Source: an uncultured Rhodospirillaceae bacterium
GTDB taxonomy: Bacteria; Pseudomonadota; Alphaproteobacteria; Rhodospirillales; Defluviicoccaceae
DNA length: 64,000 nucleotides
Reading direction: 5' to 3'
Assembly (NCBI GenBank): GCA_964460955.1
Contig: CAYWRP010000002.1
Coordinates: 12,654-76,653, forward strand
A program made the position numbers and the translations under genes. Each line of letters starts with the position of its first letter. Position 1 is the stretch's first letter. The notes beneath the pieces are model-generated. The model did no database searches. It saw only the letters and a program-made list of their open reading frames with translations, and was not told the origin of the DNA. This document shows positions 57,278 to 62,867 of the stretch, piece by piece.

Positions 57278-58177
57278 ATGATCGCAAAAACCTCATGGTC
57301 TGTTTTGAGAGCGTATTTCAGGCCTGCACGCGCGGATTTCGAGCCGTTTTACGATGCCGCCGCGGGACTCGTTAACAAGTTTTGCATCATCTCTACCACA
57401 GTTCTGTTCGCTCTGATTTTTAATTCTGCCGCGTGCAATGCCGAGGCCGAACCGGCCACCGCCGCCGAGGCGACAGCAATCGTCGCCTCGATCATCGACG
57501 GCGATACGGTGGTTCTGAAGGAACCGATCAAGGGCGCGCGGGAAGTGCGGCTGGTCGGCATACAGGCGCCGAAGCTGCCACTCGACCGGCCCAATTTCCG
57601 CAAGTGGCCGCTTGCCGACCAGGCGCATGACAGGATCGCCGAGTTGAGCGCCGGACGTTCGTTCCAGCTGAAGTTCACCGGCAGGGATCGCGATCGGCAT
57701 GGGCGGTTGCTGGCACACATGTTCCGCGACGACGGTTTGTGGCTGCAAGGCGCCATGATGCAGGCGGGATTGGCGCGAGTCTACACCTTCGCCGATAACC
57801 CGGCCTTCGCGGATGCCCTGTTGGAACTGGAACGGGCGGCGCGGACCGACGAGCGGGGGATCTGGGGCCATCCTTATTATGTCATCCGTACGCCGACGGA
57901 GGTCCGCTATGACATCGGCACGTTCCAGATCGTCGAAGGCAGCGTTCTCAAGGCGGCGCGGGTCGGCCAATGGGTGTACCTGAATTTCGGGCCGAATTGG
58001 CGCACGGACTTCACCGTTTCCGTCAATGCCAACGACCTCGCGTCGTTCGAGGCGGCGGGCCTCGATCCGCCGCGGATGTCGGGCGCGCGGATTCGTGTCC
58101 GCGGCTGGGTCGAAGACCGCAACGGGCCGATGATCACCCTCGATCATCCGCAACCCCTGGAAGTGATAGATCCATAG
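57278..58177 (+). CDS. Thermonuclease (SNase)-fold protein with extra C-terminal domain
   Basis: IDGDT, VRLVGIQAP, DRHGRLLAH, GLARVY, RGIW, then about 95 aa starting GTFQIVEG...YLNFG...RVRGW; hydrophobic segment near the N-terminus; start uncertain. Confidence 0.85.
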   Translation: MIAKTSWSVLRAYFRPARADFEPFYDAAAGLVNKFCIISTTVLFALIFNSAACNAEAEPATAAEATAIVASIIDGDTVVLKEPIKGAREVRLVGIQAPKLPLDRPNFRKWPLADQAHDRIAELSAGRSFQLKFTGRDRDRHGRLLAHMFRDDGLWLQGAMMQAGLARVYTFADNPAFADALLELERAARTDERGIWGHPYYVIRTPTEVRYDIGTFQIVEGSVLKAARVGQWVYLNFGPNWRTDFTVSVNANDLASFEAAGLDPPRMSGARIRVRGWVEDRNGPMITLDHPQPLEVIDP

Positions 58178-58195: not shown

Positions 58196-58660
58196 CTACA
58201 GCGCGAGGAAAGCGGCGTCGGCGGGAACCGAGGCGAAGAACGTCACCGCGCCGGTGACTTCCGCCGCAACGTCGTCACGAAGATCCGCCGCTTCGATGTC
58301 GCTGGCGCGCAGCCCCATCTCGCAGACCAGGAAGCGGACGCCAAGCGCGGCGCATGCGCCCAACAGTTCCTCGAAGCCGGCGACACCGCGCCGACGATTT
58401 GTGGCGTCGGTCTCCACCGCCGGCGTGCCGTCTTCGCCGCACATCGCCGCCCAGCCCGGCCGACCGTCGTCGCCGCGGCGGGTCAGCGCGCGGCAGGCCT
58501 GCAGGGTGAAAAAGATCGTGCACGGCTTGCCAAGGGCGGCCTGGCTCGCGGCCAGAACAAGGGCGTAATGAACCCGTTCGAAGGCACCTGAGAGGGCGAC
58601 GATGGCCATCGCTTGCGGCCCGCCGAGCGTGCCGTCGTCGGCGCCGTCAATCTCCGTCAT
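58196..58660 (-). CDS. DsrE/DsrF-like family protein
   Basis: AIVALSGAFERVHYALVLAA...TIFFT...FEELL...GVRFLVCEMGL (conserved Cys); 14-nt overlap with the moeB end. Confidence 0.75.
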   Translation of the reverse strand: MTEIDGADDGTLGGPQAMAIVALSGAFERVHYALVLAASQAALGKPCTIFFTLQACRALTRRGDDGRPGWAAMCGEDGTPAVETDATNRRRGVAGFEELLGACAALGVRFLVCEMGLRASDIEAADLRDDVAAEVTGAVTFFASVPADAAFLAL

Positions 58661-59456
58661 GGCCGCCAAGGTCGACGATGCTGGGGGCGTCGCCGCACAG
58701 CGGGCAGCCGGGATCGGGCGGCACCCGGATGCGGCGGAACGTCCCCGACAAGGCGTCCGCCAGGAGGAGCCAACCGGCGAGACTGTCGCCAATGCCGAGG
58801 ATCTCCTTGATGACCTCCGTCGCTTGCAACGAGCCGACAACGCCGCAAAAGGCGCCCATGACGCCCGCCTCGGCGCAGGAAGGCGCGGCGTCGGCGCCCG
58901 GCGGATGACCATACAGGCATCGGTAACAGGGGGTGCGATTGCCATCACGGTCGTGTCGACGGAAGGTGGCGACTTGGCCGTCGAACCGCAGGATGGCGCC
59001 GGAGACGAGGGGGACATCGGCGAGGTAGCAGGCGTCGTTGACGAGAAAGCGGGTCTCGAAATTGTCCGACCCGTCGGCGACGATGCGATAGCCGGCGATA
59101 AGGTCGGGGGCGTTGCCGGCGTTCAACCGGTGGCGATGGCGGATCACCGTCGTTCCGGGGTTGATGCGGGCGATCGTCTCGGCGGCACTGTCCACCTTCG
59201 GCTGGCCGATGGCGCTGGTGCCGTGAATCACCTGGCGCTGCAGGTTCGTCAGGTCGACGGTATCGTCGTCGACAATGCCGAGGGTGCCGACGCCGGCGGC
59301 GGCGAGATAGAGCAGTAGCGGCGAGCCCAGGCCGCCGGCGCCGACGACGAGAACGCGGGCCTCGCGGAGCCGGGCCTGGCCGATGCCGCCGATCTCGGGC
59401 AGGATGATGTGGCGGGCATAACGGCGCAGCTCGTCATCGGTGAACGTGGCGGCCAT
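58647..59456 (-). CDS. moeB: MoeB/ThiF/HesA E1-like adenylyltransferase
   Basis: RYARHIIL, GAGGLGS, NLQRQ, DGSDNF, CYRC and CPLC Zn pairs, SCAEAG; no rhodanese domain. Confidence 0.9.
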   Translation of the reverse strand: MAATFTDDELRRYARHIILPEIGGIGQARLREARVLVVGAGGLGSPLLLYLAAAGVGTLGIVDDDTVDLTNLQRQVIHGTSAIGQPKVDSAAETIARINPGTTVIRHRHRLNAGNAPDLIAGYRIVADGSDNFETRFLVNDACYLADVPLVSGAILRFDGQVATFRRHDRDGNRTPCYRCLYGHPPGADAAPSCAEAGVMGAFCGVVGSLQATEVIKEILGIGDSLAGWLLLADALSGTFRRIRVPPDPGCPLCGDAPSIVDLGGHDGD

Positions 59457-59488
59457 CTCCGGAAAAGAGGCGAACGAGCCGCCGGCTG

Positions 59489-60478
59489 TCAAGCCGTCCC
59501 GAGGCCATCGAAAAGCGGCGTCGACAGGTAGCGCTCGGCGAAAGACGGCAGGATCACGACAATCCGCTTATCGGCGAACCGCTCCCGCGTCCCAACCTCG
59601 ACCGCCGCAGCGAGGGCGGCGCCCGACGAGATGCCGACGGGCAGCCCCTCCAGTTTGGCGACCTTGCGCGCCATGGCGAATGCCGTCTCATTGCCGATCT
59701 TGATTACTTCGTCGATCAGATCGGTCTGCAGCACACCGGGGATGAAGCCGGCGCCGATCCCCTGGATCTTGTGCGGCCCGGGCACGCCGCCCGACAACAC
59801 GGGGCTGTCTTCCGGCTCCACGGCGATCATCTTCAGGTCCGGGTTGCGCTTCTTGAGGACCTCGCCGCAGCCGGTCAACGTGCCGCCCGTGCCGACGCCG
59901 CTGATCAAGGCGTCGATCCGACCTCCGGTGTCGCGCCAGATCTCCTCGGCGGTGGTGTGGCGATGCACTTCCGGGTTGGCGGAATTGCTGAACTGCTGCA
60001 GCATGTAGGCGTTGGGGACGCTGTTGACCAACTCCTGCGCCTTGGCAACCGCGCCCGGCATACCCTTGGCCGCGGGCGTGAGAACGATTTCCGCCCCCAA
60101 CAATGCCAACATCTTGCGCCGCTCGACGGCCATGCTTTCCGGCATGGTCAGCATCAGCCGATAACCGCGCGCCGCGCAGACGAAAGCCAGGGCGATGCCG
60201 GTATTGCCGGACGTCGGTTCGATCAGCGTCGCGTCCGGGGCCAACTGGCCGCTCGCTTCGGCGGCCTCGATCATCGCCAAGCCGATGCGGTCCTTCACCG
60301 AGCTCAGCGGATTGAAGAACTCGCACTTCCCCAGCAGTTCGGCGGGGCAGCTGGTCTCGTGGGCGAGTTTCCTCAAGCGCACCAGGGGAGTGTTGCCGAT
60401 CGTATTAAGGATCGACTCGTGGATGTGCTCTTCCGATGAGCTGTTTTCCGACGTCATCGGCAAATGTTGCGCGGTCAT
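59489..60478 (-). CDS. cysK: Cysteine synthase A (O-acetylserine sulfhydrylase)
   Basis: IGNTPLV, NPLSSVKDRI (PLP Lys), PTSGNTG, GVGTGGT, GPHKIQGIG, GISSGA. Confidence 0.96.
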   Translation of the reverse strand: MTAQHLPMTSENSSSEEHIHESILNTIGNTPLVRLRKLAHETSCPAELLGKCEFFNPLSSVKDRIGLAMIEAAEASGQLAPDATLIEPTSGNTGIALAFVCAARGYRLMLTMPESMAVERRKMLALLGAEIVLTPAAKGMPGAVAKAQELVNSVPNAYMLQQFSNSANPEVHRHTTAEEIWRDTGGRIDALISGVGTGGTLTGCGEVLKKRNPDLKMIAVEPEDSPVLSGGVPGPHKIQGIGAGFIPGVLQTDLIDEVIKIGNETAFAMARKVAKLEGLPVGISSGAALAAAVEVGTRERFADKRIVVILPSFAERYLSTPLFDGLGTA

Positions 60479-60566: not shown

Positions 60567-61022
60567 TCAAATCGAGAAGTCCAGATTGCTCCGACCCTCG
60601 CTCCGGATGCCAGCCAAATGTGCCTTATCGCACAAATCATCCAGCGTTACGTTATCGAGTTGCGTCAATACATTATCTGTCAGCTGACGCCAGAGCGGCC
60701 GGACCACCTGGCGGGCCAGCACCGACCCGGTTTCTTCCTCAAGAACATCGTTCTCTGCGTCGCCGTTACGGACGATGCGGACGATCTGGCCGACCGTAAT
60801 GCGCCGACGCTCGCGCGCCAGTCGATAGCCGCCGCGCGGGCCGCGCACGCCGACCAGGACACCATGGCGCACGAGATCCTGAAGCGCTTGTTCGAGGTAG
60901 CGGCGCGGTATTCCCTGACGCCGGGTGATTTCTCGGCTTTGCACGGGCTCGGCGCCGGCGTGAAAGGCGATGTCCAGCACCGCTTCGATGGTGAACAAGG
61001 CTTTACGCGATAATCGTATCAT
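60567..61022 (-). CDS. Rrf2-family regulator, Cys-poor (CymR-like)
   Basis: YLEQ...GVRGPRGGYRLAR wHTH; only one Cys, so no IscR/NsrR three-Cys cluster; C-terminus SNLDFSI. Confidence 0.9.
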   Translation of the reverse strand: MIRLSRKALFTIEAVLDIAFHAGAEPVQSREITRRQGIPRRYLEQALQDLVRHGVLVGVRGPRGGYRLARERRRITVGQIVRIVRNGDAENDVLEEETGSVLARQVVRPLWRQLTDNVLTQLDNVTLDDLCDKAHLAGIRSEGRSNLDFSI

Positions 61023-61037
61023 CCTTGACGCACGTCC

Positions 61038-61508
61038 TTATTCCGACTCTTCGACGGTGAGGCCGGTCGAGCCGAACCCGTTGACGGATCGTTGCGTGCC
61101 GTCCAACGCCGCGACTTCGCGCCATTCGGCGGTGCAAACGGGCGCGAAGACGAGTTGGGCGATCCGCATGCCGCGTTCGACATCGAATACCCGGTCACCG
61201 AAATTGATCATCACCACGGAAATTTCGCCGCGGTAATCGGCGTCGATGGTTCCGGGCGCATTGAGGACGGTCAGTCCATGCTTGGCGGCAAGGCCAGACC
61301 GGGGCCGCACCTGGGCCTCGTAACCCTTCGGAATGGCGACGGCGATTCCCGTCGGGATCCACGCGCGCGCGCCGGGGCGGATCGAGACGGTCTCTCCGGT
61401 CGCGGCCAGCAGATCCATGCCGGCGCTCAGTTCCGTTGCGTATCGCGGCAGCGGCAGGTCCTGGGCATGGCCCAGCCGAACGATTTCGACGTTCAATGGG
61501 GCTGGCAT
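61038..61508 (-). CDS. dut: dUTP diphosphatase
   Basis: SAGMDL, RPRSG, NAPGTIDADYRGE, RIAQ, GFGSTG. Confidence 0.96.
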   Translation of the reverse strand: MPAPLNVEIVRLGHAQDLPLPRYATELSAGMDLLAATGETVSIRPGARAWIPTGIAVAIPKGYEAQVRPRSGLAAKHGLTVLNAPGTIDADYRGEISVVMINFGDRVFDVERGMRIAQLVFAPVCTAEWREVAALDGTQRSVNGFGSTGLTVEESE

Positions 61509-62713
61509 GGCGCTTCCAGATGGTCGGCGATTCGCTCCGCGAGCCGGTTGGCGACGTTTTCTTTGCTCATCGCCGGCCAGGCCTCGACGCCGGCGGCGGA
61601 GATCAGGTTGATCGTGTTGGCGTCACCGCCGAAGGTTCCGCTCGCCGCCGAGACGTCGTTGGCGAGAATCCAGTCGCATCCCTTGCTCAGCCGTTTTTGC
61701 GTTGCGTGGGCGACGAGATCGGAGGTCTCGGCGGCGAAACCGACGACGATCGTCGGCCGGCGATTTCCGGCGCGCGAGAGGGTGGCGAGGATGTCCGGGT
61801 TCTCGGCCAGTGTTAGGGCCGGTGGGGCGCCGCCTTCCTGTTTCTTCATCTTCTGTTCCGCCAGTTCGGCCGGCCGCCAGTCGCTCACCGCCGCCGCGCA
61901 GACGGCAATGTCCCGCGGCAGCGCGGCCTCGCAGGCCTCCAACATCTCGCGTGCCGTCTCGACATGGATGACGTGCACACCGACGGGGTCGGCAATCGCC
62001 ACCGGACCGGAAACCAGCGTTGTTTCGGCGCCGAGACGGGCCAGCGCGGCGGCGATGGCATGGCCCTGTCGACCGGACGATTGATTGGAAAGGAACCGCA
62101 CCGGGTCGATCGGCTCGCGGGTCGGCCCACTCGTCACCAGCGCGCGTCGGCCGGCGAGACGATCGCCGCAACGTAACAAGTCGGTAATCGCGGCCAGAAT
62201 CTGCGGAGGCTCGGCCATGCGGCCGAAGCCCCATTCGCCGCAGGCCATGTCACCCTCGTTGGGGCCGACGAAGTGGATGCCGCGTTCTTCCAGCGTCCGC
62301 AGATTGGCTTGCGTCGCCGCGTGTTCCCACATGCGCACGTTCATCGCCGGCGCCGCGAGGACGCGTTTGTCGGTGGCCAGCAGCGTCGTCGTCGCCAGAT
62401 CGTCGGCCATTCCCGCCGCCGTTCGGGCGAGCAGATCGGCCGTCGCCGGCGCGATGACGACCAAGTCGGCCTCTCGCGACAGCCGGATGTGCCCCATCTC
62501 GCTCTCGTCGGTGAGCGAGAACAGATCCTGGTAGACCTTGTTTTCGGTGAGCGCGGCGATGGCGAGCGGTGCGACGAACTGACTGCCGCCGGTTGTCAGG
62601 ATGCACCGGCATTGCCCCCCCGCCTCGCGAATCAGGCGGATCAGTTCGAGGCTCTTGTAGGCGGCGATGCCGCCTGAGATGATCAATAAGATGGTTCTAC
62701 CGGCAAGCTTCAT
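61493..62713 (-). CDS. coaBC: Phosphopantothenoylcysteine decarboxylase/synthase
   Basis: SGGIAAYK, HIRL, APAMNVRMW, TSGPTREPIDPVRFLSNQSSGRQG, AAVSDW, VGFAAET; start trimmed to ATG 62713. Confidence 0.96.
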   Translation of the reverse strand: MKLAGRTILLIISGGIAAYKSLELIRLIREAGGQCRCILTTGGSQFVAPLAIAALTENKVYQDLFSLTDESEMGHIRLSREADLVVIAPATADLLARTAAGMADDLATTTLLATDKRVLAAPAMNVRMWEHAATQANLRTLEERGIHFVGPNEGDMACGEWGFGRMAEPPQILAAITDLLRCGDRLAGRRALVTSGPTREPIDPVRFLSNQSSGRQGHAIAAALARLGAETTLVSGPVAIADPVGVHVIHVETAREMLEACEAALPRDIAVCAAAVSDWRPAELAEQKMKKQEGGAPPALTLAENPDILATLSRAGNRRPTIVVGFAAETSDLVAHATQKRLSKGCDWILANDVSAASGTFGGDANTINLISAAGVEAWPAMSKENVANRLAERIADHLEAPCQPH

Positions 62714-62867
62714 CGTCGCCACATGATTAACGGTGCCATACTGTAGAAGAAATGGGCACGCGCGGCGTTCAAGGCAAGCGCGCTTTTGCATGTGCGAAAA
62801 AGCGGCAGGCAGTCGATGCCGCCGACCGATTACCGGCCACGCCGCATCAGGGGGGCGCTTCTCGTGC

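Follow-up and report, generated by a model that had tools for sequence, protein, structure and literature searches.

How does an E1-like enzyme without a rhodanese domain of its own receive the sulfur for its carrier proteins? The question is raised by a locus in the DNA analysed here, a stretch of 64,000 nucleotides of contig CAYWRP010000002.1 from an uncultured Rhodospirillaceae bacterium (hereafter the window), in which the cysteine synthase gene cysK is followed by the E1-like gene moeB and by a small gene encoding a DsrE-like protein. The initial annotation had taken this run for a possible relay in which the DsrE-like protein carries sulfur to MoeB. The layout it described was confirmed by the coordinates: a spacer of 32 nt separates cysK from moeB, and the ATG of the DsrE-like gene sits inside the 3′ end of moeB, read ATGACGGAGATTGA, with an overlap of 14 nt.

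The genome comparisons show that moeB and the DsrE-like gene form a translationally coupled pair, kept across about 37 GTDB families of Alphaproteobacteria. A scan of public genome contigs returned 33 loci, 32 of them alphaproteobacterial and labelled mostly as Rhodospirillales, Defluviicoccus, Magnetovibrio and Magnetospirillum fulvum. In all 32, moeB is located immediately upstream of the DsrE-like gene on the same strand. One locus labelled “uncultured Mycobacteriaceae” (CAZTNV010000080.1) contains a typical alphaproteobacterial pair, with a MoeB 63% identical to that of the window; the label is probably a binning or labelling error. The second survey used a family-stratified sample of 400 alphaproteobacterial genomes, in which an orthologue was defined by a profile score above 100 bits. 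The scores were bimodal, with 66 genomes above this value and all other matches at 69 bits or less. The orthologue is found, therefore, in about one in six of the sampled Alphaproteobacteria, and the genomes that carry it span the families mentioned above. In 64 of these 66 genomes moeB lies directly upstream; in the two exceptions (L046/G141 and L102/G211) it is located elsewhere in the genome. Co-occurrence with moeB, of the kind that the initial annotation had proposed as a check for rhodanese-less MoeB, was borne out in both surveys. MoeB accompanies the DsrE-like gene in all 66 genomes, and the 117 genomes in which no MoeB was matched all lack the DsrE-like gene. The sample includes 284 MoeB-positive genomes (genome G240 is flagged as unpublished, which affects only this count). 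In 62 of the 66 genomes with the DsrE-like gene MoaE was detected; the other four are assemblies with a completeness of 62–91%.

The junction between the two genes was compared in 97 pairs, the window included. The genes overlap by 1–14 nt in 58 of them, with modes at 8 and 11 nt, and nearly all junctions fall within 35 nt. Since about 96 further loci repeat the arrangement, it is far beyond chance. The gene preceding moeB is cysK in 57 pairs, dut in 19, coaBC in two and an unrelated gene in 13, while six pairs have no flank. This variety of upstream neighbours indicates that moeB and the DsrE-like gene move as a unit. In a single locus (L050:2-403, minus strand), the pair is divergent to an apparent start of thiC, a gene of thiamine pyrimidine synthesis, recognised by eye from its N-terminal sequence.

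The DsrE-like protein is a divergent member of the Pfam family DrsE_2 and belongs to a MoeB-linked clade. It passes the PF13686 model weakly (37.8 bits, cut-off 25), and the divergence of this match is apparent from its paralogues, which reach 150–183 bits. The score against NF047629, the equivalog of the DsrE2 group of Liu et al. 2014, is 45.1 bits, below the cut-off of 210, and a lookup in the ESM Atlas again returned the DrsE_2 family and nothing further. No linkage to tusA, hdr or dsr, by which DsrE2 is recognised (PMC4175335), was found in the locus, where the DsrE-like gene is flanked by moeB and a convergent SNase-like gene; nor does the locus hold a three-subunit set of the DsrEFH or TusBCD kind, its DsrE gene being a single one. 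The genome contains three further DsrE-family genes, located at C67:3076-3839, where two stand in tandem, and C66:13202-13507, which makes the MoeB-linked protein one of at least four DsrE-fold proteins.

The alignment of 31 orthologues (A1) contains 12 invariant positions. The cysteine of the VCEM motif, Cys113, whose conservation had been pointed out earlier, is retained in 31 of 31 sequences and is the sole invariant cysteine; it is directly followed by the invariant glutamate E114, and the other invariant residues include H31-Y32-A33, F50-F51 and W70. An AlphaFold2 model built from the same alignment is confident, with a mean predicted local distance difference test score (pLDDT) of 93.7 and a predicted template modelling score (pTM) of 0.86. 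The best Foldseek match of the model is 2qs7 (SSO1126, DsrE2B type; E 9e-9), and the further matches, namely 3pnx, 3mc3 (DsrE3A type), DsrEFH (2hy5) and YchN (1jx7), all belong to the DsrE family. In the comparison of the profile with PDB sequences, 2qs7 was found at E 4e-14, and Cys113 aligned with the cysteine of 2qs7 and with that of 3pnx. It also aligned, but weakly (domain E-value >1), with the first cysteine of the C-x7-C motif of 3mc3, which is the active-site position in group DsrE3A (Liu et al. 2014, PMC4175335). The characterised members of the fold all handle sulfur on the aligned cysteine (PMC4175335, PMC11094781). As modelled, the small protein is a divergent DsrE-fold member with the sulfur-carrying cysteine position retained.

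The contexts of more distant homologues were collected by a phylum-level genome search. The alphaproteobacterial paralogues of the DsrE-like gene (69 bits or less) adjoin TusA in three loci (L104–L106), two of which (L105 and L106) also have an adjacent YeeE-type sulfur transporter. A homologue in Victivallales forms the C-terminus of an 818-aa protein (L036:4021-6474) that joins CoA-disulfide reductase, rhodanese, TusA and DrsE_2 domains. A further family of the same phylum, whose genomes measure about 2 Mb (L149–L174), has a drsE_2 gene next to tusA in 25 of 26 loci, and in 15 of those 25 the order is cysH-drsE_2-tusA-cysD-cysN, an assimilatory sulfate-reduction cluster. We know of no described role for this drsE_2-tusA pair. 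Given that the paralogues adjoin TusA, rhodanese and sulfur-assimilation genes or are fused with them, the wider DrsE_2 family is used in sulfur trafficking, including that of assimilatory sulfur, and usually together with TusA. The MoeB-linked clade stands apart in that moeB replaces TusA as the constant neighbour.

The enzyme encoded by moeB was described in the initial annotation as lacking a rhodanese domain, and this proved correct. Its sole Pfam domain is PF00899 (256 bits, residues 13–252); no match to PF00581 was obtained, only positions 12–262 of the 392-position MoeZ model, which make up its E1 part, could be aligned, and the 269-residue protein stops just past the second CxxC. The score against the MoeB subfamily model NF004281 is 307.5 bits, above its cut-off of 266. 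The stricter TIGR02355 (225 against a cut-off of 376.55) was missed, and MoeB and ThiF are therefore indistinguishable here. Two CxxC zinc motifs and a loop cysteine, Cys194, account for five cysteine columns, which are kept in 115 of 115 MoeB orthologues.

The genome, which is 98% complete, contains one PF00899 match, moeB itself, as its sole ThiF-family or E1-like gene. It contains two matches to PF02597, the ThiS/MoaD family: moaD, which adjoins moaE on contig C57, and thiS, which shares one open reading frame (ORF) with thiG on contig C12. Both lie outside the window, in agreement with the earlier statement that it holds neither gene. A hidden ubiquitin-like carrier was not found among the GG-ending ORFs near the operon, where the sole GG-ending frame is antisense to moeB. 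Because MoeB is the only E1-like enzyme in the genome, it must be the housekeeping activator of MoaD, and it probably serves ThiS as well.

MoaD (L002:1501-1755, plus strand) ends in GGSRR instead of GG, and this tail means that the GG end must be exposed by cleavage. Among 19 relatives, 13 MoaD proteins end in GG, four have two or three extra Arg/Gly-rich residues, and two are in-frame MoaD-MoaE fusions. The only clear Prok-JAB protease gene is located on contig C31. The thiS-thiG ORF (L003:706-1785, minus strand) encodes 359 aa, comprising ThiS ending in GGG, a linker of about 17 residues and ThiG; processing of this ThiS C-terminus would be needed before adenylation by MoeB.

It is suggested, with the chances about evenly balanced, that the DsrE-like protein serves as an optional persulfide donor for MoaD or ThiS bound to MoeB. 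More tentatively, and with a probability somewhat under one half, the protein may bind MoeB and act as a dedicated persulfide donor, or as the carrier of an acyl-persulfide intermediate, in the thiocarboxylation of MoaD and ThiS. Cys113 would be loaded as a persulfide, possibly as a thiosulfonate, by a cysteine desulfurase, perhaps via one of the three TusA proteins. The loaded cysteine would attack the acyl-adenylate of MoaD or ThiS held on MoeB, and the acyl-persulfide would then be reduced to the thiocarboxylate. The DsrE-like protein would thus do the job of the rhodanese domain fused to MoeZ, MOCS3 and Uba4. It is probably an accessory that improves the sulfur supply, and not an obligatory part of the system.

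A number of observations weigh against a MoeB-specific donor. In proteobacteria, MoeB ordinarily lacks a rhodanese domain, as do MoeB and ThiF of E. coli, and for this reason there is no gap that a DsrE relay has to fill. Five genes of the genome contain rhodanese domains, seven in all, and there are also three TusA genes and about five class-V cysteine desulfurases. The description of the relay as “rhodanese-free” is not supported by this inventory, and the possibility of a rhodanese-free genome was rejected. The DsrE-like gene is absent from about 218 of the 284 MoeB-bearing genomes. Of these, the 20 genomes with the best-matching MoeB, 58–66% identical to that of the window, were inspected. 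In 17 of them cysK-moeB is retained, most also with coaBC, dut and rrf2 upstream. No substitute sulfur gene was present downstream of moeB in any of the 20, the place being taken by a convergent dehydrogenase or secreted-protein gene, and functional displacement by another sulfur gene was rejected.

The MoeB sequences point in the same direction. The unpartnered enzymes are scattered over a tree of 115 MoeB sequences, on which parsimony requires at least 11 gains or losses of the DsrE-like gene, two of which are forced by well-supported branches. No alignment column separates partnered from unpartnered enzymes among these sequences, so that co-adaptation of MoeB to its partner was rejected. 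A word-based search for longer proteins found no MoeB-DsrE fusion, and the best 150 of 1370 profile matches, obtained from 1.84 billion representatives, are all of 217 aa or less. Two open frames of 489 and 492 aa (in loci L050 and L062), considered as possible fusions, are alternative-frame artefacts of high-GC DNA. Moreover, all pairs come from one class, and part of the synteny is therefore due to shared descent. Taken by its distribution, the DsrE-like gene is accessory and optional.

The genes around the pair are listed in Table 1. The earlier gene list was accurate for cysK, moeB and the DsrE-like gene and overlooked the gene of an Rrf2-family regulator, a member of the conserved block upstream of cysK. 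A scan for promoters and terminators gave counts at or below those in shuffled sequence.

Table 1. Genes of the moeB locus and its flanks, with positions in the window.
Gene	Position	Strand	Product length	Family matches and remarks
SNase-like gene	57278-58177	plus		convergent; closes the gene block
DsrE-like gene	58196-58660	minus	154 aa	Pfam DrsE_2 PF13686
moeB	58647-59456	minus	269 aa	Pfam ThiF PF00899, NF004281
cysK	59489-60478	minus	329 aa	PALP, TIGR01139
Rrf2-family regulator gene	60567-61022	minus	151 aa	PF02082, 97 bits
dut (dUTPase)	61038-61508	minus		PF00692, 108.7 bits; belongs to the conserved upstream block
coaBC (Dfp)	61493-62791	minus		PF04127 and PF02441; belongs to the conserved upstream block

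The product of cysK scores 443.9 bits against the cysK equivalog TIGR01139 (cut-off 350.95) and stays below the cut-offs of the CysM models. By these profile matches, it is predicted to be an ordinary O-acetylserine sulfhydrylase of the A type. The link to cysteine synthesis drawn in the initial annotation turned out to be weak: cysK does not directly precede moeB in at least 34 of the 97 pairs, and it adjoins moeB also where the DsrE-like gene is missing. It is the Rrf2 regulator, not the DsrE-like gene, with which cysK goes. The Rrf2 protein contains a single cysteine, which rules out the usual Fe-S cluster, and ends in DFSI; a D-[FY]-x-I C-terminus is present in 52 of 53 Rrf2 orthologues from related loci. 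Its score against the CymR model is 68 (cut-off 195), and the IscR model is also below its cut-off. C-terminal isoleucine tails dock in the CysK active site, as in the complexes of CysK with serine acetyltransferase and with CymR. By analogy, the D-[FY]-x-I tail looks CysK-docking-like and suggests a sensing complex of the CymR-CysK type. Most economically, moeB and its partner would also be under the transcriptional control of a cysteine-sensing Rrf2-CysK module, and sulfur status probably governs the operon via this upstream regulator.

Such an operon brings up the main alternative to a MoeB-specific donor, namely that the DsrE-like protein is a general assimilatory carrier or buffer of sulfur, as persulfide or thiosulfonate, a member of the Rrf2/CysK regulon that supplies CysK or more than one acceptor, and that its position behind moeB is due to operon history and not to a dedicated partnership. 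The presence of cysK and of a regulator with a CysK-docking type of tail agrees with this, as does the related DrsE_2 clade that stands with TusA inside the cysH-...-cysD-cysN clusters of another family of the phylum; the lack of MoeB co-adaptation and the repeated loss of the gene would also be expected of a general carrier. Nevertheless, the DsrE-like gene is found away from moeB in only two of 66 genomes, even though at least 34 of 97 pairs dispense with an upstream cysK; its start overlaps the moeB stop, and it lacks the neighbouring TusA of its paralogues. We consider a general carrier unlikely, with perhaps one chance in four.

It is less probable still that the DsrE-like protein has an unrelated function, redox or other, and is merely inherited together with moeB, as coaBC is with dut. 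Those two functionally unrelated genes stay adjacent across the same genomes, the evidence for the MoeB link is all contextual, and the relatives bear the Joint Genome Institute (JGI) name “peroxiredoxin family protein”. The name, however, is an automatic label and no test of function, and the moeB-DsrE-like pair outlasts rearrangements that remove coaBC, dut and cysK, while the characterised members of the fold all use the aligned cysteine for sulfur (PMC4175335, PMC11094781). The third alternative, a CysO-type route in which cysK, moeB and the DsrE-like gene make cysteine from a protein thiocarboxylate, was raised in the initial annotation and, apart from the cysteine synthase adjoining an E1-like enzyme, has so little in its favour that it is very improbable: CysK scores above the cut-off of the type-A model and below those of the CysM models, the window contains no CysO-like carrier and no JAMM (Mec) gene, the ThiS/MoaD-family carriers of the genome are limited to MoaD and ThiS, the only clear Prok-JAB gene is the one on contig C31, and cysK is missing from many pairs, so that a CysO-CysM-Mec pathway was rejected.

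The donor role for MoeB-bound carriers can be set beside the known systems. In the MoeB-MoaD and ThiF-ThiS pairs of E. coli, the E1-like enzymes are likewise rhodanese-less and have two CxxC motifs, the carrier genes lie elsewhere, and a separate protein donates the sulfur. Sulfur is supplied there in trans, by IscS with TusA or YnjE and by the rhodanese domain of ThiI. The present locus differs in the translational coupling of moeB to a DsrE-fold gene; to our knowledge, no DsrE-fold partner has been described for MoeB or ThiF of E. coli. In MoeZ, MOCS3 and Uba4, a dedicated persulfide-carrying module is placed on the E1 enzyme by fusion, and here by gene coupling; the proposed module here has the DsrE fold instead of the rhodanese fold, forms a polypeptide of its own and can be absent from close relatives. 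Thermus thermophilus uses one E1-like enzyme, TtuC, for TtuB, MoaD and ThiS, aided by the separate rhodanese-like protein TtuD. A single E1 shared by several carriers and a separate sulfurtransferase helper would be common to both cases, but TtuD is a rhodanese, whereas the proposed helper here has the DsrE fold, and this genome has no third carrier of the TtuB type.

The closest likeness of the small protein itself is to DsrE2B (2qs7, Mcup_0682) and DsrE3A (3mc3, Mcup_0681) of Sulfolobales, which have the same fold and the active-site cysteine at the same strand-to-helix junction. These proteins, like DsrEFH and TusBCD, carry sulfur or thiosulfonate from one protein to another (PMC4175335, PMC11094781). 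Their genes neighbour those of TusA, Hdr or Dsr, and their roles are in sulfur oxidation or tRNA thiolation, whereas the MoeB-linked clade has moeB as its neighbour, no adjacent TusA and a single gene in place of a three-subunit set. In the searchable literature library, no paper was found that connects DsrE-type proteins with MoeB, ThiF, MoaD or the formation of thiocarboxylates, and the DsrE classifications of Liu 2014 (PMC4175335) and Tanabe 2024 mention no MoeB-linked group. The initial annotation knew of no description of the pairing, and none was found here. As a candidate sulfur relay, the locus would have a DsrE-fold protein, in place of the expected rhodanese, supply an E1-like enzyme.

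The sulfur route to carriers bound to MoeB or ThiF has been settled only in a few model organisms, with IscS, TusA, YnjE, ThiI and the fused rhodanese as its components, and not in most bacteria with rhodanese-less E1 enzymes. A DsrE-fold partner is a concrete candidate for the donor to such enzymes, and its conserved coupling to moeB makes it a testable one in a large group of Alphaproteobacteria. If the proposed role is true, a DsrE-fold protein would for the first time be assigned to the biosynthesis of molybdenum cofactor or thiamine, and would represent an evolutionary answer independent of the rhodanese domain of MoeZ, MOCS3 and Uba4. The roles of the DsrE family, which comprise sulfur oxidation and tRNA thiolation, would then come to include cofactor biosynthesis. 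Should the link prove to be purely regulatory, the locus would still exemplify sulfur activation for cofactors under a cysteine-sensing regulator.

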